Shown here one piece after another: positions 6,858 through 37,169 of a stretch of 64,000 nucleotides of DNA. The notes beneath the pieces were generated by a model, which did no database searches, was not told where the DNA came from, and saw nothing but the letters and a program-made list of their open reading frames with translations. Source of the DNA: Anaerolineales bacterium (GTDB lineage: Bacteria > Chloroflexota > Anaerolineae > Anaerolineales > E44-bin32); NCBI GenBank assembly GCA_037379555.1, contig JARRJK010000027.1, forward strand, positions 1,285-65,284, in the 5' to 3' direction. Numbering within the stretch: position 1 is the stretch's first letter; the number at the start of each line of letters is the position of its first letter. A program made the translations under genes and the position numbers.

Positions 6858-7555
6858 CCCTCGCGAGTCTGTAGTTTGTATCCGACTCCACGCACGGTCA
6901 GGATGCGTTGAGGGTCGTGAGGGTCATCTTCGATCTTCTCGCGCAGCCAGCGGATGTGGACATAGACGACCTGCGGCTCGCCGACGTACTCCGCCCCCCA
7001 CACCCGCGCCAGCAGCTCATCGGTCGAGATCACATTGCCGACTTCGAGCGCCAGCGTGTGCAGCAGGTCGAACTCACGCGGCGGCAGGTCGATTTCCCTC
7101 CCGGCGACGGTCAGCGTATGGGCGGCCGGGTCGATTCGGATATCGCCGATCTCAACCGGTTCGCTTTCGCCGAGCGGATGGAGCGGGGCCTGGGTGCGGC
7201 GCAGCACAGCCTTGATGCGCGCCAGCAGCACATCCTGGTCGAAGGGCTTTGTGACGTAATCCTCGGCACCGAGTTCGAGCCCGAGCACTTCATCGAGTTC
7301 GCGGCGGCGGGCGGTGAGGAAGATCACCGGCGAACCGATCTTTTCCTGAAAGATGCGCAGCGCGTCGAGGCCGTCCATGCCCGGCAAGCCGATGTCGAGC
7401 AGCACCAGGTCAGGCGGTTCGCGGCGGGCGATCGCCAGGGCGTCCTCAGCCGTGCCGGAGGCCATCACGTCGTAACCGGCCTGCTCCAGATTGAAGGTCA
7501 GGCTGCGGCGCAGCAGGTCGTCATCGTCTACAAGCAGCAGTTTGGCAACTGTCAT
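6854..7555 (-). CDS. OmpR/PhoB-family response regulator (canonical receiver plus winged helix)
   Basis: 233 aa. LLVDDDD, phospho-acceptor context LVLLDIGLPGMDG, FLTA, TKPF. C-terminal wHTH ...ILTVRGVGYKL. Confidence 0.97.
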   Translation of the reverse strand: MTVAKLLLVDDDDLLRRSLTFNLEQAGYDVMASGTAEDALAIARREPPDLVLLDIGLPGMDGLDALRIFQEKIGSPVIFLTARRRELDEVLGLELGAEDYVTKPFDQDVLLARIKAVLRRTQAPLHPLGESEPVEIGDIRIDPAAHTLTVAGREIDLPPREFDLLHTLALEVGNVISTDELLARVWGAEYVGEPQVVYVHIRWLREKIEDDPHDPQRILTVRGVGYKLQTREG

Positions 7556-24249: not shown

Positions 24250-24346
24250 GACGGTTCGGTAGCAGGCTGTCCTGGCTGGTCTTCCCAGCTGTAGACCCTG
24301 TTGCTTTGCGTCGCCACCTTTCGGTGGGTTTGCCTTTTCGTCGTAG
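24250..24346 (-). promoter_or_regulatory. c-di-GMP-I (GEMM-I) riboswitch aptamer
   Basis: Minus-strand RNA: CUACGACGAAAAGGCAAACCCACCGAAAGGUGGCGACGCAAAGCAACAGGGUCUACAGCUGGGAAGACCAGCCAGGACAGCCUGCUACCGAACCGUC. Hallmark blocks are present: GGCAAACC, a hairpin with GAAA tetraloop, GACGCAAAGC, and a second hairpin closing with ...GCCUGCUACC. For comparison, the V. cholerae Vc2 aptamer as I recall it reads ...GGGCAAACCAUUCGAAAGAGUGGGACGCAAAGCC...GGUAGCGGGGUUACC. Confidence 0.8.
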
Positions 24347-29597: not shown

Positions 29598-30284
29598 ATG
29601 CAGGCGATTGTCATCGCACCGGATCCAGACGAACGCGATCTCCTGGTTTACACCCTGCGCAAGGCAGGCCTGGCTGTTGCCGCGAGCAGCGATCACCGCC
29701 GGGTGCTGTCCAACTGGGCCGACCACGCAGCCGATGTGCTGCTGATCGCTCTGGCAGTAGATTCAGATCCTATGAAGGTGATCGCCGACGTCCGGGCAGC
29801 CACACAGGTTCCGCTGGTGCTGGTCGCCGAACCACGGTCGGAGTCAGCCACCTGCCAGATCTTAAACTCAGGAGCCGACGTCATCCTTTCCCGGCCAATT
29901 TCTCCCCTGTTGATCGCTGCTCAGTGTGCGGCCGTCCTGCGGCGCTCCAACGCCATCCCGGGCTTTGTGCTTCCCAGCCTCGACTTGGGCCGCATCTCGC
30001 TCGATCCATCCACGCGCCAGGTCGAAGTGGAAGGAAAGGCTCCGCAGCGCCTGACACAGCTCGAATTCCGCCTGCTCTACGTGCTGATGACCAATCGCGG
30101 CCAAGTCCTGCCGAGTGAAGTCATCGTCGAGCGCGTCTGGGGGTACAGTGGGGAAGGCAATCGAGATCTGGTGCGCGGCTTGGTCAGCCGCTTGCGGCAC
30201 AAGATCGAGCCTGACCCCGAGAAACCGGTTTTCCTCGAAACGCTGTCGGGCGTCGGCTACCGCTTCAACTCGGACGAAATTTAA
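29598..30284 (+). CDS. atypical OmpR-family regulator with a degenerate (pseudo-)receiver domain
   Basis: 228 aa. The winged helix is intact (...ETLSGVGYRF). In the receiver, the phospho-acceptor position reads DVLLIALAV (Ala where Asp is expected), the T/S position reads LVLVAEP, and the conserved Lys reads SRP. Confidence 0.85.
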   Translation: MQAIVIAPDPDERDLLVYTLRKAGLAVAASSDHRRVLSNWADHAADVLLIALAVDSDPMKVIADVRAATQVPLVLVAEPRSESATCQILNSGADVILSRPISPLLIAAQCAAVLRRSNAIPGFVLPSLDLGRISLDPSTRQVEVEGKAPQRLTQLEFRLLYVLMTNRGQVLPSEVIVERVWGYSGEGNRDLVRGLVSRLRHKIEPDPEKPVFLETLSGVGYRFNSDEI

Positions 30285-30314
30285 CCCGATTTACTCTGAA
30301 AACAGAGATTGAAA

Positions 30315-30355
30315 CCCGGATGGCACGCATTTCGTCGTCCGGGGGCCTTTTTTAT
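30315..30355 (+). terminator. probable intrinsic terminator after the regulator gene
   Basis: CCCGGA...(17 nt)...TCCGGG followed by GGCCTTTTTTAT. Confidence 0.55.
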
Positions 30356-30469
30356 ACGCCCTTGCCACAGCCCCTGCACGTTAAATGACTCGCACGTGAT
30401 TAATCTACACACTGGTTCGATCCAAACCTGTCGGATGCTGATGCATCCTGCACCAGAAGGGGAGGGCCT

Positions 30470-30691
30470 ATGGTAATTGGAAGATGTCCCGAATGCGACG
30501 CGGAGGTTCCCGTGGACGCATTGGTGGTGATGGACCAGCGCCTGTGCTGCTCGCGATGCGGCGCACAGCTGGTGGTGATCGGCGTCTCGCCGGTCGAACT
30601 GGATTGGGCTTTCGTTGAACCGATCCCCAACCAGCGCTTGGGCGAGGAGCCCGGTGTGTTTCCGATCGATCCAGCCTGGACAAAGCGATAG
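30470..30691 (+). CDS. LysW-like zinc-ribbon protein (possible amino-group carrier protein) with an atypical C-terminal extension
   Basis: 73 aa, strong RBS GGGGAGGG 5 nt upstream. GRCPECDAEVPV...CCSRCGAQLVVIGVSPVELDWA parallels Thermus LysW as I recall it (GTCPECGAEL...CEDCGAELEVVGLDPLRLE...EDWGE). Here about 25 further residues follow instead of a terminal EDWGE. Confidence 0.6.
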   Translation: MVIGRCPECDAEVPVDALVVMDQRLCCSRCGAQLVVIGVSPVELDWAFVEPIPNQRLGEEPGVFPIDPAWTKR

Positions 30692-30741
30692 GGCCCGGAG
30701 ATAGCCTGGAGCGGATGCTCCAGAACGAGGAGCGTAAGATC

Positions 30742-31968
30742 ATGCATTACTTCGAGAACACAGTCTCACATCGTAAACCTCCCGCAGCCGGGCACCGTCA
30801 TGCGCCCTGGCGCGTGGCGGTGCTTGCGAACTTGAAGGAGGATGTCGAGCATACGCTCGAAGATCCTCCCGACGCCGGCGCCGAGTTTGATCGCAGGGAA
30901 ACGGTCGAAGCGATCGCCCGTGCGCTCGAACTCGACGGTCACTGGGTGCATATCTGCATCGCTGATCAATCACTGGCAGAAAGCCTCACCAACCTTCGTC
31001 CACATATTTGTTTCAATATTGCGGAAGGAATTCAGGGCGATGCGCGCGAAGCCCAGGCGCCAGCGCTGTGTGAGCTGCTTGGCATACCCTACACCGCTTC
31101 GCGGGTGCTGACCAACGCACTTTCGCTGGATAAAACCCAGACCAAACGCGTCTGGGCCAGCCATGGTCTGCCGACGCCGGCCTTCCATGAATTCCGGAGT
31201 GGGCGAGAGCCGGTGCGCAAAGACTTCCGCTACCCGCTGTTTGTCAAACCAGCGCGCGAAGGCACCGGTATGGGCATCGATGGCTCGGCCGTGGTTCACA
31301 ACGAGCGGGAGCTTCGCCAGCGCGTGAACTGGGTTTTGAAGACATACAAACAGCCTGCGCTGGCGGAGGAGTTCCTGCCCGGGCGTGAGTTCACGGTGGG
31401 TTTCATCGGCAATCCGGGATCGTCCCGGGATCGCCGCCGGCCCTGGCTGTACAACTCGCAGGGCTACCACGTGTTCCCGATCCTCGAACTTGACAACAGC
31501 CGGAGCGTAAGCCCGGGCATTTACAGCAACGCGGCCAAGTCGCTCGATATCGGCGAGCAAGGCGCGCCGGATTACCTCTGCCCGGCGAACATCTCGCGTA
31601 CGCTCGCCCGCAAGCTGATTGACCTTTCGCTGCGCGCGGCGGAGGCAGTTGGCGCTTTGGACGTATCACGGGTCGATCTGCGGCTCGACGCGGATGGTGA
31701 GCCATACCTGCTCGAGATCAACACGCTGCCCGGGCTCAACCCGCTGGTCAGCGATCTGTGCATCATGGCCGCTGCTGAGGGCATGAACTACGATGTCTTG
31801 ATCGGCGAGATCCTCTATCTGGGCGCTGAGCGCTACCAGCTGCCTTTCGAGCGGGTAGCGCGGAGCGAGGAGGCGCGCCCGCTGATCGCCCTGCGCGAGC
31901 GCGTCAGTCAGGTAGCTCAGCTTGCGACCGCGCCCGTCCTGCGCGCTGCTCTGCGCAGGAACCTATGA
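30742..31968 (+). CDS. ATP-grasp ligase, D-alanine--D-alanine ligase-like family
   Basis: ORF from 30715. The ATG at 30742 is preferred (GAGGAG 9 nt upstream). ...LGIPYTASRVLTNALSLDKTQTK..., FVKPAREGTGMGI, EEFLPGREFTVGFIGN, DVSRVDLRLDADGEPYLLEINTLPGL. ATGA overlap with kamA. Confidence 0.85.
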   Translation: MHYFENTVSHRKPPAAGHRHAPWRVAVLANLKEDVEHTLEDPPDAGAEFDRRETVEAIARALELDGHWVHICIADQSLAESLTNLRPHICFNIAEGIQGDAREAQAPALCELLGIPYTASRVLTNALSLDKTQTKRVWASHGLPTPAFHEFRSGREPVRKDFRYPLFVKPAREGTGMGIDGSAVVHNERELRQRVNWVLKTYKQPALAEEFLPGREFTVGFIGNPGSSRDRRRPWLYNSQGYHVFPILELDNSRSVSPGIYSNAAKSLDIGEQGAPDYLCPANISRTLARKLIDLSLRAAEAVGALDVSRVDLRLDADGEPYLLEINTLPGLNPLVSDLCIMAAAEGMNYDVLIGEILYLGAERYQLPFERVARSEEARPLIALRERVSQVAQLATAPVLRAALRRNL

Positions 31969-33414
31969 GTGCGGGTGCGATGATGATAGCCAGAGGAGCG
32001 AGCGGGGTGCGGGCGGGTTTCATTTCCCGGCGTGCGCCGCAGTTCGAATCGGTACCGGACGAGCAGTGGAACAACTGGCGCTGGCAGTTGAGCCACCGTC
32101 TGAACAGTGCAGACGAGATCAATGAGATCGTTCCGCTCCACGAGAGCGAGAAGCGCGCGCTGTCAGCTGGCCATCTTTTCCGCGTGGACATCACCCCATA
32201 CTTCATATCGCTCATCGATCCTGACGATCCGGGCGATCCGATCCGCCGTCAGGTGATCCCGACCGATGCAGAGCTTGCACCCTTTGAAGGCATGCTGGTA
32301 CTCACTGGCGGAGGAAGAACATTCGCCCGTGCCGGGGCTGGTGCACCGCTATCCCGATCGTGTGCTGATGCTCGTCACGACTCAGTGCGCCTCCTACTGC
32401 CGCTACTGCACGCGCTCCCGCATCGTCGGCGATCCGCACCGGCAGTTTTCGCGCCACGACTACGAACAGCAGCTCGATTACCTGCGGCGCACACCGCAGG
32501 TGCGCGACGTCCTGCTTTCGGGTGGTGATCCGCTAACGCTCCCCCCGGCGGTGCTCGAGGGTCTGCTGCGCAGCCTGCGTGAGATCGAGCATATCGAGAT
32601 CATCCGCATCGGAAGCCGGGTGCCGGTCTTCCTGCCGATGCGCGTGGATGAGCAGCTGGCCGAGATGCTGGCACGCTATCATCCGCTCTGGATGAACATC
32701 CATGTCAACCACTCGAACGAGATTACAGCCGAACTGGCACAGGCGACGGACCGACTGACCCGGGCCGGAATCCCGCTCGGAAACCAGTCGGTGCTGCTGG
32801 CCGGAGTGAACGACTGCGTCGCGGTGCAGCGCAAGCTGGTGCAGGATCTGGTGCGCATGCGCGTGCGCCCATACTATCTGTACCAGTGCGACCTCGTCGC
32901 CGGAGCAGGGCATTTCCGCACTCCGGTAGCGAAGGGCATCGAGATCATCGAGGGCCTGCGCGGCCACACCTCGGGTTATGCTGTACCGACGTATGTCGTC
33001 GATGCCCCAGGCGGCGGCGGGAAGATCCCGCTCATGCCGAACTACCTGCTCAGCCAATCCGACCATCGGGTTGTGCTGCGCAATTATGAGGGCTATATCG
33101 CCACCTACGAAGAGCCGACTGATTACCAGGCGCATGATCGCACCAGTTGCCCGGCCTGCCGGGCGAACGCATCTGCGGCAGGACAGGCGGGTGTCTCCGG
33201 CCTGCTGGCAGGTGAGCGGCGGGCCATCAAGCCGGAAGGGTTTGATGGGCTGCATGCGCGGCAGACGGCCCCTGCCGCTGCGGCTGAATTTGACCAGACG
33301 CATGAACTTCTAATGGAAACCAGGCTGAGGGTTATCCAGCCTATACCCACCCACTCGAACGGCAACGGCCATCGGAAGCAGCGCGTCCGCAAACCGAAAT
33401 CCGACAGCAGCTAG
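31965..33414 (+). pseudogene. kamA: lysine 2,3-aminomutase (radical SAM/PLP, KamA/AblA type) carrying an apparent +1 frameshift near 32299
   Basis: ORF 31965..32528 carries the N-terminus (…WNNWRWQL…ITPYFISLIDPDDPGDPIRRQVIP…EGML). ORF 32266..33414 carries the rest (…SLAEEEHSPVPGLVHRYPDRVLMLVTTQCASYCRYCTR…GGDPL…YQCDL…VVDAPGGGGKI…). Deleting the T at 32299 (CTGGTACTCA -> CTGGACTCA) joins them as …EGMLDSLAEEEHSPVPGL…, colinear with B. subtilis KamA (…MEDPLHEDGDSPVPGL…) as I recall it. Confidence 0.85.
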
Positions 33415-33497
33415 TCAGACGCAGGCAAGGAAGGATCTAGTGTCAGCCCGGGAACAAGCCTGGGCTGATGTTCGTTAATGGGGGTGGAACTCGGGGA

Positions 33498-33554: not shown

Positions 33555-33618
33555 AATCACTATAGAGCATCCATTGGATGCACCCCACGAGGGAATGGGT
33601 GCTCGAGAGGGAAAAAAG

Positions 33619-35166
33619 ATGAACAGCACACGATGGGTATATGTCTTCCTGGGGCTGGCGGCCTTCGCGGTGCTCGGCACTGTGACAGTCATCGCGGCCT
33701 TTATTGGCCTCGATCTGGTGCGCGGCAGCGCCTGGAACGAAGGAGTGGCCTCGCCGACGCCTGCCGTGCTTCCAACGCAGTCCGGTCAGGCGAGCATAAG
33801 CGGCCTGGTCTGGCACGACCTGTGCGCTTCGGGCATCCCCGGCCAGCCTGCGCAGGCCGAAGCGCCTGCGGGATGCATCGCGGGTGGCGAATGGGGCTTT
33901 GCGGCCAACGGTATGCTCGAAGCGGGTGAACCGGGCATAACAGGCGTCTTCGTCCGTCTGGGGAGCGGTGCCTGTCCGGCGAGCGGACTGGCCGAGCAGG
34001 CCTCTGATGGGGCCGGTCGTTTCGCCTTCGAGCAGCTTGATCCAGGCACATACTGTGTCTCGATCGATCCGGGCGACGCCCGCAACGCACCACTCCTGCA
34101 GCCGGGCAATTGGACATTTCCTGAGCGCAGTGCGCCGGCGATGGCCACCATAAACGTGGAACAGGCGGAGCACATTTCAGATGTCAATTTCGGCTGGGAT
34201 TTCCAGTTCGAGCCGTTGCCTCCGACGCCGACCCCCACACCGACGGTCACGCCGACGGCGACCATGCCGCCCACGCCAACTCGCACGCCTACGCCTACTG
34301 CACCGCCGATCCCCTGTGACTGGGTTGGCTTCGTCAAAGATATATCCGTGCCAGACGGTACGAACCTGCATCCAGACGAGACCGCCACCAAGACCTGGCG
34401 GCTGAAGAACATCGGCACCTGCACCTGGACCCGCGATTACGACCTGGTTTTCATCACGGGTGCCCGGATGTCGAACACCAAGGCGGTGCCGCTGAAGGCA
34501 AACGTCAAGCCCGGGGAGACGATCGATATCTCGATTGAGCTCAGGGCGCCGGTTCTCACGGGCAAGTACACTGACTACTGGGCGCTGCGCAACGCCTCGG
34601 GACTGATCTTCGGGATGGGATCAGATGCCGATGACCCATTCTGGGTGACGATCAATGTGGTCAAGCCGAGAAAGGTCGTCTTCAACTTCTATGAGCATGT
34701 TTGTGATGCGGACTGGGTGAGCACCAGCGGTGAGCTTTCCTGCCCAACGCAGGATTACTCCATCGATGGACTCGTTCAAGGCGTGGCCCTTCCGGTCCTG
34801 GAAGGGGGGCGCCAGGAGAATGAGCCCGGGATCTGGGTCATTCCGGAAGGAGTCGGCGGCGGCCGGATCTCCGGCACCTTCCCGGCCCTTAGCGTGAAAT
34901 CGGGCGATCATTTTCGAACGGTAGTCTCCTGCGCGAATGACGCACCTGGCTGCGATCTGCAATTCAAGCTGGAGTACCAGATCGGAGACGGCGAGGTCAA
35001 GACGCTGGGCCGTTGGGATGAGACCTACGACGGCAAATACACCAAGGTTGACATCGACCTCAGTCCCCTGGCGGGCAAAGATGTGAAATTCATCCTGACC
35101 GTCCGGGCGAAGGATGCCTTCAACCAGGACTTTGCCCTCTGGCTGATGCCGGCGATCTATCGCTAG
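33619..35166 (+). CDS. membrane-anchored/secreted protein with SdrD-B/Cna-B-like domain, Pro/Thr linker and NBR1-like (Nbr1_FW) Ig domain
   Basis: ORF from 33574. The ATG at 33619 is preferred (MNSTRWVYVFLGLAAFAVLGTV anchor). GEPGITGVFVRLGS...GRFAFEQLDPGTYCVSIDP, then PLPPTPTPTPTVTPTATMPPTPTRTPTPTAPP, then CDWVGFVKDISVPDGT...TKTWRLKNIGTCTW...YWALRNASGLIFG. Confidence 0.8.
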   Translation: MNSTRWVYVFLGLAAFAVLGTVTVIAAFIGLDLVRGSAWNEGVASPTPAVLPTQSGQASISGLVWHDLCASGIPGQPAQAEAPAGCIAGGEWGFAANGMLEAGEPGITGVFVRLGSGACPASGLAEQASDGAGRFAFEQLDPGTYCVSIDPGDARNAPLLQPGNWTFPERSAPAMATINVEQAEHISDVNFGWDFQFEPLPPTPTPTPTVTPTATMPPTPTRTPTPTAPPIPCDWVGFVKDISVPDGTNLHPDETATKTWRLKNIGTCTWTRDYDLVFITGARMSNTKAVPLKANVKPGETIDISIELRAPVLTGKYTDYWALRNASGLIFGMGSDADDPFWVTINVVKPRKVVFNFYEHVCDADWVSTSGELSCPTQDYSIDGLVQGVALPVLEGGRQENEPGIWVIPEGVGGGRISGTFPALSVKSGDHFRTVVSCANDAPGCDLQFKLEYQIGDGEVKTLGRWDETYDGKYTKVDIDLSPLAGKDVKFILTVRAKDAFNQDFALWLMPAIYR

Positions 35167-35317: not shown

Positions 35318-35593
35318 GTGCTGGGACTGCTCTACAGGGAGGGGGATTTGACCGCACGTGTGATCGCAGAAAGGCTGGCGATCACGGAACGCAGCGTGCG
35401 CCGGATCCTGAAGGATCTGGAGACCGAGGGCTACATCCAGCACCGGCGGGTTGGGCGGAAGAACGCCTACCGCATCAATCTTGAACAGGCTTTGCGTCGA
35501 GCCGACCAGAGCGGGGTGACCGTTGGAGCTCTCCTGAAGGTGATCGGATCGCCGGCCGAAACGCAGCCAATGAGGACGAAACCGAAGTCCTGA
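35318..35593 (+). CDS. small winged-helix DNA-binding protein (paralog of 36879..37169); the N-terminus is cut off by an in-frame TGA
   Basis: ORF-track product MLGLLYREGDLTARVIAERLAITERSVRRILKDLETEGYIQHRRVGRKNAYRI.... The same frame extends upstream to the ATG at 35273 (GGAGGG RBS) as MHGRPT*GFISNHGAVLGLL.... The TGA at 35291..35293 aligns with Trp in the paralog (MSPKSPWTFITNHGAVLAIL). Confidence 0.7.
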   Translation: MLGLLYREGDLTARVIAERLAITERSVRRILKDLETEGYIQHRRVGRKNAYRINLEQALRRADQSGVTVGALLKVIGSPAETQPMRTKPKS

Positions 35594-35749: not shown

Positions 35750-36853
35750 ATGCGAAGGTACCGGGTGGTGCTTGCTTTGATGCTGCTTGGTTTGAGCGCA
35801 TGCGTCAATTCCGAGCGGAACCAGCTCCACGTTACCCCGACGCGAATTACAGCCGGCTACGGCCATACCTGCATCCTGAGGACATCCGGGGGGATCCTGT
35901 GCTGGGGACATAATGGTTTCGGACAGCTGGGAAGCGATGACCTCGGGGACTGGAAGAGTGCGCTCATGATGAATATCCCGGGAGAACTTTCGGCGGTCAC
36001 GGCCGGCGCATACCACACCTGCGCCTTGACTCAGGCGGGTGATGTGTACTGCTGGGGTTGGAATGCATTCGGCCAGCTCGGTGATGGCACGACGGTCGAC
36101 CGGACGTCACCGGTGCGCGTGAAATCCCTGCCCGCTGATGTGGTTCAGGTGGACGCCGGTTCGACCCATACCTGTGCCCTGGATGCACAGGGCGGAGCGT
36201 ACTGCTGGGGCCAGAACAGCTGCGGGCAGCTGGGCGATGGCACCCAGACCGACCAGTCTGAAGCAGTCCAGGTGCAAGACCTTCCAGCCGGAGTAACCAC
36301 GATCGCCTCCGGTGGGGTCTTCACATGCTCACTGACTGCGGCAGGCGACATGTACTGTTGGGGGGATGGGTCAGCGGACCGTTTCGCAGCAGGTAGTGAG
36401 CCTTGCGTCCTCAGGCCGATAAAAGTTAATGCAAGGCCCGGGTTGATCGCCATTGCGGCCGGAGAGTATCACCTGTGCGCACTTCAGGATGATGGTTCGG
36501 CTGCCTGTTGGGGATCGATCACTACGGAACGGGCGACGACCCCCGAGGAACCACTGGCTGCTTCAGGCCTGCCAGATCGGATTGCTCAGCTGGAGGCTGG
36601 AGCAGGTTTTCAATGCGGGTTGACCCAGTCCGGGCTCGTCTACTGTTGGGGTGATAACTACTTTGGACAACTGGGAGATGGAACGGATCGGCCGAGCTTA
36701 TACCCATTGGAGGCGGTAGCGCTGCAAGGGCATGCCCTGGAGATCGCGCTAGGCTCCGGTCATGTCTGCGCCATGATCGATGACGGAAAGGTGTACTGCT
36801 GGGGTGATGGTTCGGCTGGCCAGCTGGGCGATGGATCTCAGCGCTGGCAGTAA
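35750..36853 (+). CDS. RCC1-repeat beta-propeller lipoprotein
   Basis: 367 aa. Lipobox MRRYRVVLALMLLGLSAC. Seven repeats of the type GYGHTCILRTSGGILCWGHNGFGQLG. Confidence 0.9.
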   Translation: MRRYRVVLALMLLGLSACVNSERNQLHVTPTRITAGYGHTCILRTSGGILCWGHNGFGQLGSDDLGDWKSALMMNIPGELSAVTAGAYHTCALTQAGDVYCWGWNAFGQLGDGTTVDRTSPVRVKSLPADVVQVDAGSTHTCALDAQGGAYCWGQNSCGQLGDGTQTDQSEAVQVQDLPAGVTTIASGGVFTCSLTAAGDMYCWGDGSADRFAAGSEPCVLRPIKVNARPGLIAIAAGEYHLCALQDDGSAACWGSITTERATTPEEPLAASGLPDRIAQLEAGAGFQCGLTQSGLVYCWGDNYFGQLGDGTDRPSLYPLEAVALQGHALEIALGSGHVCAMIDDGKVYCWGDGSAGQLGDGSQRWQ

Positions 36854-36878: not shown

Positions 36879-37169
36879 CTACCCCGTGGTGTGTTTAAGT
36901 ATGTCCAGCAGATCGGCGACCGCCACCTCGCGCTGATCGGCCCGGCGCAGCGGCCGCTTGCGGTTGACAGTGTAGCGGTTGCGGCGCCCGTCTTTTTCGA
37001 TCTCGATGTAGCCATCCGCATCGAGCTCGCTGATGATACGCCGCACTGTCCGCACCGTGATCCCAAGGCGCGTCGCGATCTCGCGGGCCGTGATCAACCC
37101 CTCATGTCCGAGGATCGCCAGGACCGCACCATGGTTTGTTATGAAAGTCCAGGGTGATTTTGGGGACAC
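36879..37169 (-). CDS. small winged-helix DNA-binding protein (paralog of 35273..35593)
   Basis: 96 aa. FITNHGAVLAILGHEGLITAREIATRLGITVRTVRRIISELDADGYIEIEKDGRRNRYTV. Confidence 0.8.
   Translation of the reverse strand: MSPKSPWTFITNHGAVLAILGHEGLITAREIATRLGITVRTVRRIISELDADGYIEIEKDGRRNRYTVNRKRPLRRADQREVAVADLLDILKHTTG

Follow-up and report, generated by a model that had tools for sequence, protein, structure and literature searches.

Layout of the locus

We analyzed a 64,000-nucleotide stretch of DNA (the window) from an Anaerolineales bacterium (assembly GCA_037379555.1, contig JARRJK010000027.1, positions 1,285 to 65,284), which carries co-directional genes for a small LysW-fold zinc-ribbon protein, a Ddl-fold ATP-grasp ligase and a KamA-type lysine 2,3-aminomutase. 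These three genes are real, as an earlier note made from the sequence alone had stated, and the conserved module to which they belong also includes an upstream regulator gene (29598..30284) that was absent from that three-gene description. The module appears to pair an ATP-grasp ligase with an acidic-tailed carrier or substrate protein, but it does so with another ligase subfamily, a radical-SAM (S-adenosylmethionine) partner and a regulator devoid of the phospho-acceptor Asp. As far as we found, it is undescribed: full-text literature searches gave no published description, in agreement with the note, which could not match it to a known system. The features are the following.

29598..30284, + strand: OmpR/PhoB-type regulator with a pseudo-receiver domain; Trans_reg_C match, no phospho-acceptor Asp
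30315..30353, + strand: terminator-like hairpin 3' of the regulator gene; stem 30315-30343, GGCC, U6 run 30348-30353
30352..30380, + strand: three direct repeats with 11-nt spacing; candidate operator and small-gene promoter region
30470..30691, + strand: LysW-fold zinc-ribbon gene; 73 aa, four Cys, ELDWA motif, 27-aa weakly acidic tail
30742..31968, + strand: Ddl-fold ATP-grasp ligase gene; 408 aa, not a curated Ddl
31965..33414, + strand: KamA/AblA-type lysine 2,3-aminomutase gene; frameshifted, 483 aa once repaired
32299..32300, no strand: site of a 2-bp deletion (CG) in KamA, from DNA alignment with the related contigs L085 and L086
33442..33469, + strand: hairpin 3' of the KamA stop; 11-bp stem, without a U run

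The small protein has a LysW fold and an unusual tail

The 73-aa product passes the Pfam model for LysW zinc ribbons (PF21344 Zn_ribbon_LysW, 34.3 bits against a cutoff of 27), and its residues 3-47 match Thermus thermophilus LysW (3wwl_A, E 4.9e-6). The gene is preceded by the ribosome-binding site GGGGAGGG, so that the earlier assignment of a LysW-type zinc ribbon with a strong ribosome-binding site holds. The profile search that the note had proposed gave a divided answer, however, since the curated LysW equivalogs failed (TIGR01206, 21 against 53.2; NF041070, 18.7 against 75). Under closer inspection, the four-Cys pattern reads CPEC-N17-CSRC, not N16 as first described, with an extra Cys at position 26. 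The terminal EDWGE is indeed missing, the protein ending in ...AWTKR, while the extension following ELDW comprises 27 residues rather than 25.

A profile search found at least 1,863 clusters in the family of this protein; among the matches listed, all named members are Anaerolineae, and many are annotated as "LysW" or "lysine biosynthesis protein LysW." Across 122 homologues, the tails measure 20.5 aa and carry a net charge of -13 (both medians), and consist of 66% D/E and 16% W/Y/F. Hyper-acidic D/E/W tails are thus found in most family members; the clade of the window is atypical in being weakly acidic, but an EE pair recurs in it. The last residue varies (D in 29, W in 20, Y in 14, G in 11 and E in 10 of the 122), and the family has no conserved Lys fit to serve as an acceptor amine. 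A terminal Glu is the defining feature of LysW and the site at which amino acids are attached to it.

Several loci carry further small zinc ribbons. L018, L063, L099, L168, L165 and L097 hold two to four paralogous LysW-fold genes each, and some paralogous tails (e.g., LGDEEWEEEGEEEGEEV) are close to the C-terminal tail of alpha-tubulin. At 7106-7282 (+) in L082, a rubredoxin-like zinc ribbon with an acidic tail (...EDWDDEFGDEDFDEYDEEEE) directly follows a KamA-ligase pair that is without a LysW-fold gene. A graspetide-type precursor of a peptide that ribosomes synthesize and that is modified after translation (RiPP) was also considered and rejected, as the tails are about two-thirds D/E and by inspection contain few Lys, Ser or Thr partners.

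The Pfam match to the globular domain, together with the source annotations "lysine biosynthesis protein LysW," would be accounted for by canonical LysW-dependent lysine or arginine biosynthesis, the function that many databases assign. We see practically no prospect for this explanation, which is refuted because the protein fails the family thresholds and the genes of the pathway are missing. The protein has neither the EDWGE tail nor the terminal Glu, and no LysX, LysZ, LysY, LysJ or LysK was found among the annotated genes at 24.7-40.6 kb or among the annotated neighbors of related loci. The earlier statement that the usual partners AblB, EpmA and LysX/Z/Y/J/K are not in the window likewise stands.

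The ligase has a Ddl fold but departs from Ddl at substrate-binding positions

The conserved start of the ligase is the ATG at 30742, which lies 50 nt past the stop of the small open reading frame (ORF) and is preceded by a GAGGAG ribosome-binding site; a mechanical ORF list starts it at 30715. The 408-aa product matches Dala_Dala_lig_C at 7e-27, as opposed to 0.069 for RimK and 0.025 for TTL, which agrees with the note in making it an ATP-grasp enzyme of the D-Ala-D-Ala-ligase type and not of the LysX/RimK type. The note had also asked whether it groups with bona fide cell-wall Ddl enzymes; it falls below every curated Ddl cutoff, the best score being 156.8 against 243 for NF002378, with 129 against 245.65 for TIGR01205.

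An AlphaFold2 model built on an alignment of 109 homologues reached a predicted local distance difference test (pLDDT) score of 86.8; a first model from a 12-sequence alignment (pLDDT 57) was too poor and was discarded. The top 50 matches of the model in the PDB are all Ddl or D-Ala-D-lactate ligases of the same fold, with target-normalized TM-scores of 0.71-0.86 at 19-28% identity. The L-amino-acid ligase 3vot also matched, and the closest matches in both sequence and structure are Ddl enzymes. Profile alignment (hhalign) to Escherichia coli DdlB shows that K215, R255, D257, E270 and N272 are kept, whereas Y216 is replaced by Ser and S281 by Asp, and a 22-aa insertion is present; DdlB E15 could not be mapped, as the N-domain of the ligase gave no sequence alignment. 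The Asp at the S281 position is invariant in the 109 homologues. In DdlB, S281 holds the carboxylate of D-Ala2, and its replacement by an invariant Asp therefore fits a cationic second substrate. On the grounds of the curated cutoffs and these substrate residues (Y216 to Ser, S281 to Asp), we rejected a true Ddl.

In ligases of the window type, both termini are extended by basic sequence (30742-30816 and 31850-31965 in the window, net charge +3 and +4), and the insertion contains an RRRRP cluster; in those of KamA-first loci, the N-terminal extension is absent and ERP replaces the cluster.

KamA is a lysine 2,3-aminomutase whose frame is broken in the window

The third gene product matches the Clostridium subterminale lysine 2,3-aminomutase 2A5H at 506 bits, and alignment to this structure shows that CxxxCxxC, GGGGK and the equivalents of the pyridoxal phosphate (PLP) residue Lys337 and of Arg134, Asp293 and Asp330 are kept. 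The latter three residues bind the carboxylate and the epsilon-amine of free lysine. Because catalytic and substrate-binding residues are conserved, free L-lysine is the expected substrate. After repair, the 483-aa protein passes the AblA-type equivalog TIGR03820 (529.8 against a cutoff of 525.4), while the fragments as encoded score 51 and 462 bits. By homology, then, intact KamA is a lysine 2,3-aminomutase, predicted to turn free L-lysine into beta-lysine. EpmB was rejected (TIGR03821, 262.7 against 369.3 for the repaired protein), as were glutamate and arginine aminomutase, for both of which the repaired protein scores below the cutoff.

The motifs and the ATGA shared by the ligase stop and the KamA start (31965-31968) are as the earlier note had described them, but the gene is not full-length: its frame is split near 32300 into 31965..~32299 and ~32300..33414, which lie in different frames. 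Relative to L085, a 99.7%-identical metagenome contig, CG is missing at 32300 between GCTGGT and ACTCAC. Over 3,269 bp, the window and L085 differ by seven single-nucleotide polymorphisms and one gap, this gap being the 2-bp deletion in KamA. All seven substitutions (29758-31913) are G/C in L085 and A/T in the window, and the deletion converts a GTCGAC palindrome to GTAC. The deletion may be genuine or an assembly error; because of it, the pathway may be inactive in this particular window.

A regulator without a phospho-acceptor and a conserved array of repeats at 11-nt spacing

The regulator upstream of the small gene has a clear winged-helix output domain (Trans_reg_C, 5.7e-21), while its receiver domain is recognized below the model's cutoff (Response_reg, 2.6e-4). 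The position of PhoB D53 is occupied by Ala in the window; among 55 homologues it is Ala in 38 and Asp in none, and the position of PhoB K105 is Arg in 43 of these 55. Without the phospho-acceptor Asp, the receiver domain is not open to phosphorylation.

Between this gene and the small gene lie three repeats, TTATACG, TGCCACA and CTGCACG, exactly 11 nt apart and ending at 30358, 30369 and 30380. The corresponding motif, T-N-[AGT]-[TC]-A-C-[AG], occurs 72 times in 43 nonredundant regulator-small gene spacers, as against 19.7 ± 4.3 times in shuffled sequences and 14 times on the opposite strand. It is thus strand-specific, is common to the spacers of divergent loci and has a modal spacing of 11 nt; tandem pairs of it reach 1.84 per kb compared with a background of 0.012 per kb, an enrichment of about 150-fold. 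Direct repeats spaced by 11 nt resemble operators of the OmpR/PhoB type, and the repeats at 30352-30380 are a candidate operator to which the regulator is predicted to bind. A regulon that would include the stand-alone ligase genes was rejected, as no tandem motif was found upstream of 57 such genes.

In one lineage (L121, L126-L130, L134 and L139), the regulator and the small gene are immediately preceded by a gene for a LysE/RhtB-family amino-acid exporter; the same arrangement is seen in L106 and L141, where the contigs are truncated.

Conservation and gene neighborhoods

The ligase family gave more than 590 matching stretches in a species-representative genome collection, and the 80 loci that were kept are all from Chloroflexota, mostly Anaerolineae, including the cultured Anaerolinea thermolimosa. 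Four contexts can be distinguished. In the first, which is that of the window, the order is regulator, small gene, ligase, KamA. The second comprises one or more small genes, KamA, two successive ligases and a RimI-like GNAT; a regulator lies in the vicinity, and one such locus also has an M20 amidohydrolase. The third runs from a regulator through a small gene, a receiver-domain protein, KamA and the ligase to a histone deacetylase (HDAC)-like amidohydrolase. The fourth, which represents the majority, is a lone ligase gene next to the atp operon and mreB. Neighboring KamA and ligase genes are packed close in either order, with a 4-nt overlap in the window and in L066, L072, L073 and L078, and the order small gene-KamA-ligase occurs in other loci besides the window-like one. 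An AblB-type acetyltransferase was rejected for the related loci, as the GNAT is RimI-like and a scan with NCBIfam models (E <= 1e-5) gave no AblB model.

To quantify these associations around the ligase, we counted neighbors in 52 genomes with at least 3 kb of sequence on both sides, using an ORF scan for the Cys pattern of the small gene because tblastn alone missed most of these genes. The small gene lies within 3 kb of the ligase in 10 of the 52, KamA in 13 and both in 7; in 36, neither is found within this distance. KamA-ligase pairs without a detectable small gene were seen in six genomes.

The wide occurrence of the ligase family in the kept Chloroflexota loci, its Ddl fold and the position of the gene, mostly alone beside the atp operon and mreB, would suit a housekeeping Ddl or peptidoglycan-precursor ligase of Anaerolineae, for which the adjacency to the small gene and KamA would be incidental or would supply beta-lysine to the wall. 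We consider this very unlikely: apart from the scores far under every curated Ddl cutoff, the replacement of the D-Ala2-binding Ser by Asp and of Tyr216 by Ser and the 22-aa insertion, tandem ligase paralogues adjoin KamA in some loci, and the gene overlaps KamA.

A second set was centered on the small gene and came from a metagenome scan seeded on P[VIL]ELDWA[FY], which gave 80 loci, 25 of them with enough flanking sequence. As the most frequent neighbor, the regulator directly precedes the small gene in 20 of the 25, whereas a Ddl-like ATP-grasp gene is found within 3 kb in 16 and KamA in 11; in 9, neither is present. The earlier note had made the conservation of the small gene next to the ligase in other genomes a check on its reading, and the 16 loci show such adjacency. 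Its proposal of a single three-gene operon holds insofar as relatives have the genes as a conserved, tightly packed unit, but the small gene is tied more closely to the regulator upstream. Near the small genes, the ATP-grasp genes are of distinct lineages; among them are fusions of a methyltransferase with an ATP-grasp domain, at only about 30% identity to the ligase of the window. These fusions of 614-670 aa (L097, L128, L129 and L165) lie about 1-1.5 kb 3' of the small genes and join a SAM methyltransferase at the N-terminus, with weak similarity to glycine/sarcosine N-methyltransferase, to a C-terminal Ddl-like ATP-grasp domain; they sit after regulator-small gene pairs, with no KamA.

The prominence of the regulator in these neighborhoods could mean that the acidic-tailed zinc ribbon modulates this Asp-less protein, perhaps by mimicking DNA or acting as an anti-activator, with the ligase and KamA being members of its regulon or tuning the charge of the tail. 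Such a role would fit the receiver domain that is not open to phosphorylation, the operator-like repeats in front of the small gene and the existence of stand-alone regulator-small gene units. Nevertheless, it is ordinary for a regulator gene to lie beside the first gene of its target operon, an arrangement that needs no physical contact between the products, and we judge a regulatory partnership of this kind unlikely.

Possible conjugation of beta-lysine to the small protein

Taken together, these observations lead us to favor, tentatively, a reading in which KamA makes beta-lysine and the ligase links it as an amide to carboxylates in the tail of the small protein. The phosphorylation-independent OmpR-type regulator would bind the repeats at 11-nt spacing (30352-30380) and control a transcript of the small gene, ligase and KamA; intact KamA would convert free L-lysine to beta-lysine; the Ddl-fold ligase, using ATP, would join an amino group of beta-lysine to a carboxylate of the LysW-fold protein's flexible tail; and the HDAC-like and M20 amidohydrolases of some related clusters may remove the adduct. 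That KamA supplies the ligase is suggested by the tight coupling of the two genes in both orders. The small protein, for its part, is the putative carboxylate partner because small genes recur beside distinct ATP-grasp lineages, because no acceptor Lys is conserved in it and because of parallels with LysX/LysW, RimK/S6 and TTL/tubulin, which the proposed conjugation would resemble in chemistry and logic, albeit with a ligase from another ATP-grasp subfamily and a carrier for which a terminal Glu is not obligatory. We also count in its favor the homology of the small protein to the LysW carrier fold, the residues for free lysine that KamA keeps, the invariant Asp in place of DdlB S281, the acidic tails with their D/E and W/Y/F residues, which are like the EDWGE tail of LysW and the tails of other protein substrates of ATP-grasp enzymes, the RimI-like GNAT and the HDAC-like or M20 amidohydrolases that some related clusters add, and the operator-like repeats 5' of the small gene.

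However, a number of observations weigh against conjugation. The ligase has no detectable relation to LysX or RimK, and characterized Ddl-type enzymes join small molecules. The tail in the window is just weakly acidic over the 27 aa after ELDW, and in the family neither the C-terminal residue nor the tail sequence is conserved, a terminal Glu being present in 10 of 122 homologues. As for the neighborhoods, the 36 of 52 ligase-centered genomes with neither the small gene nor KamA nearby, the closer linkage of the small gene to the regulator than to the ligase (20 versus 16 of 25 loci), the regulator-small gene pairs that stand alone on long contigs with unrelated flanks and the lack of the tandem motif upstream of the 57 stand-alone ligase genes all count against this reading.

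Several of these points would be met by a soluble product, where KamA and the ligase make a free dipeptide or amide of beta-lysine, e.g., a compatible solute or a metabolite precursor, and the LysW-fold protein is not a substrate but either a distinct output of the pseudo-response regulator or its partner, and simply shares the promoter. Since characterized Ddl-fold enzymes join small molecules, the ligase is usually alone and the regulator-small gene pair is the more constant unit, we hold this explanation, doubtful as it is, to be nearly as likely as conjugation. L-amino-acid ligases such as the matched 3vot join small molecules as well, the six genomes with KamA-ligase pairs and no detectable small gene are in line with it, and the GNAT and HDAC-like neighbors are reminiscent of acetyl-beta-lysine metabolism. 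Yet the GNAT is not of the AblB type, small genes recur beside distinct ATP-grasp lineages even in loci without KamA, and the LysW fold and its acidic tail would be left unexplained.

Returning to conjugation, it is tempting to speculate further about a protein-tail code in Anaerolineae, in which Ddl-fold ligases write beta-lysine or lysine-derived amides onto the hyper-acidic tails of this large LysW-fold family, amidohydrolases erase them, and the charge of the tail signals to, or is controlled by, the phosphorylation-independent OmpR-type regulator; we regard this broader scheme as rather unlikely. If it were true, it would constitute a new bacterial post-translational modification and a use of the LysW fold beyond amino-acid biosynthesis.

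To date, the LysW fold has been associated with amino-acid biosynthesis and kindred natural-product pathways, with ligases of the RimK type; the present family, of at least 1,863 clusters and routinely labelled "lysine biosynthesis protein LysW," occurs in a different context across a major, poorly cultured bacterial class. The current "LysW" and "D-alanine--D-alanine ligase" annotations are probably wrong for these genes. Were beta-lysine attached to an acidic tail by the ligase, both the protein modification and this fate of beta-lysine would be new; were the product soluble, it would represent a new metabolite of beta-lysine. As a regulatory handle that can be tested directly, there is the Asp-less regulator, together with its candidate operator of repeats at 11-nt spacing.

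Hairpins and flanking genes

The earlier note had placed a terminator upstream of the small gene and a hairpin downstream of KamA. Both hairpins exist, but a consensus terminator scan flagged neither of them, and in RNA folding they surpass shuffled sequence only moderately (z of -1.8 and -2.3). The upstream one (30315-30343) has a 10-bp stem at -20.4 kcal/mol (z -1.82) and is followed, four bases further on, by a U6 run that overlaps the first operator-like repeat; the scan did not call it because its loop is 9 nt. The downstream one (33442-33469) has an 11-bp stem at about -21 kcal/mol (z -2.26) and no U run. A riboswitch in the leader was rejected, as the region 30250-30760 gave no Rfam match at E <= 1. 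In the whole window, only a c-di-GMP-I riboswitch aptamer (RF01051) at 24255-24344 (-) reached the Rfam gathering threshold, scoring 73.8 bits where 35 are required.

Directly 3' of the operon, 33574-35166 (+) encodes a protein of 530 aa, in which an N-terminal membrane segment is accompanied by an SdrD_B-like domain, a PTPTPT linker and an NBR1-type Ig-like domain; a gene of this kind also follows the cassette in L001 and may be syntenic. Further on, two small paralogous winged-helix (MarR/HTH_24-like) proteins, encoded at 35318-35593 (+) and 36879-37169 (-), flank an RCC1-repeat protein (35750-36853) and have the C-terminal motif ...RRADQ...V.V..LL..I... in common.

Comparison with known systems

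Among described systems, LysW/LysX of Thermus and Sulfolobus, with its counterpart AmCP in Streptomyces, shares with the module a four-Cys LysW-fold zinc ribbon, a flexible acidic tail containing Trp, an ATP-grasp neighbor and a lysine-related context. Here, in contrast, the ligase has a Ddl fold and is not of the RimK/LysX type, the conserved C-terminal Glu or EDWGE is absent, and the tails are much longer and, in most members, hyper-acidic; instead of LysZ, LysY, LysJ and LysK, the partners are a radical-SAM aminomutase and a dedicated pseudo-response regulator. The AblA/AblB pathway to N-epsilon-acetyl-beta-lysine and the kamA-yodP operon of Bacillus subtilis have in common with it a KamA of the AblA equivalog, which yields beta-lysine from free lysine, and some of the related loci contain a GNAT, M20 or deacetylase-like enzyme. 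No AblB/YodP acetyltransferase is present here, however; the GNAT of related loci is RimI-like, and the enzyme coupled to KamA is an ATP-grasp ligase. Beta-lysylation of elongation factor P by EpmA/EpmB is similar in that a KamA-family enzyme provides beta-lysine for attachment to a protein, which is putative in our case. It differs in that the aminomutase of the window is not EpmB (262.7 versus 369.3), the ligase is an ATP-grasp enzyme and not a paralogue of lysyl-tRNA synthetase, and the putative acceptor offers carboxylates rather than a lysine.

With the Ddl/Van ligases, the window ligase shares the three-domain fold (target-normalized TM-score up to 0.86), the residues for ATP and Mg2+ and those equivalent to K215, R255, D257, E270 and N272. 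It is set apart from them by an identity of about 19-28%, scores below all curated cutoffs, the changes of S281 to Asp and Y216 to Ser, the 22-aa insertion, which lies before the omega-loop, and the basic N- and C-terminal extensions. Finally, RimK/S6 and TTL/TTLL-tubulin are likewise cases in which ATP-grasp enzymes add amino acids to Glu-rich C-terminal tails, and some tails of the small-protein family (…EEWEEEGEEEGEEV) are like the alpha-tubulin tail. Sequence similarity to these enzymes is very weak (RimK 0.069, TTL 0.025), and the likeness lies in the logic and not in family membership.

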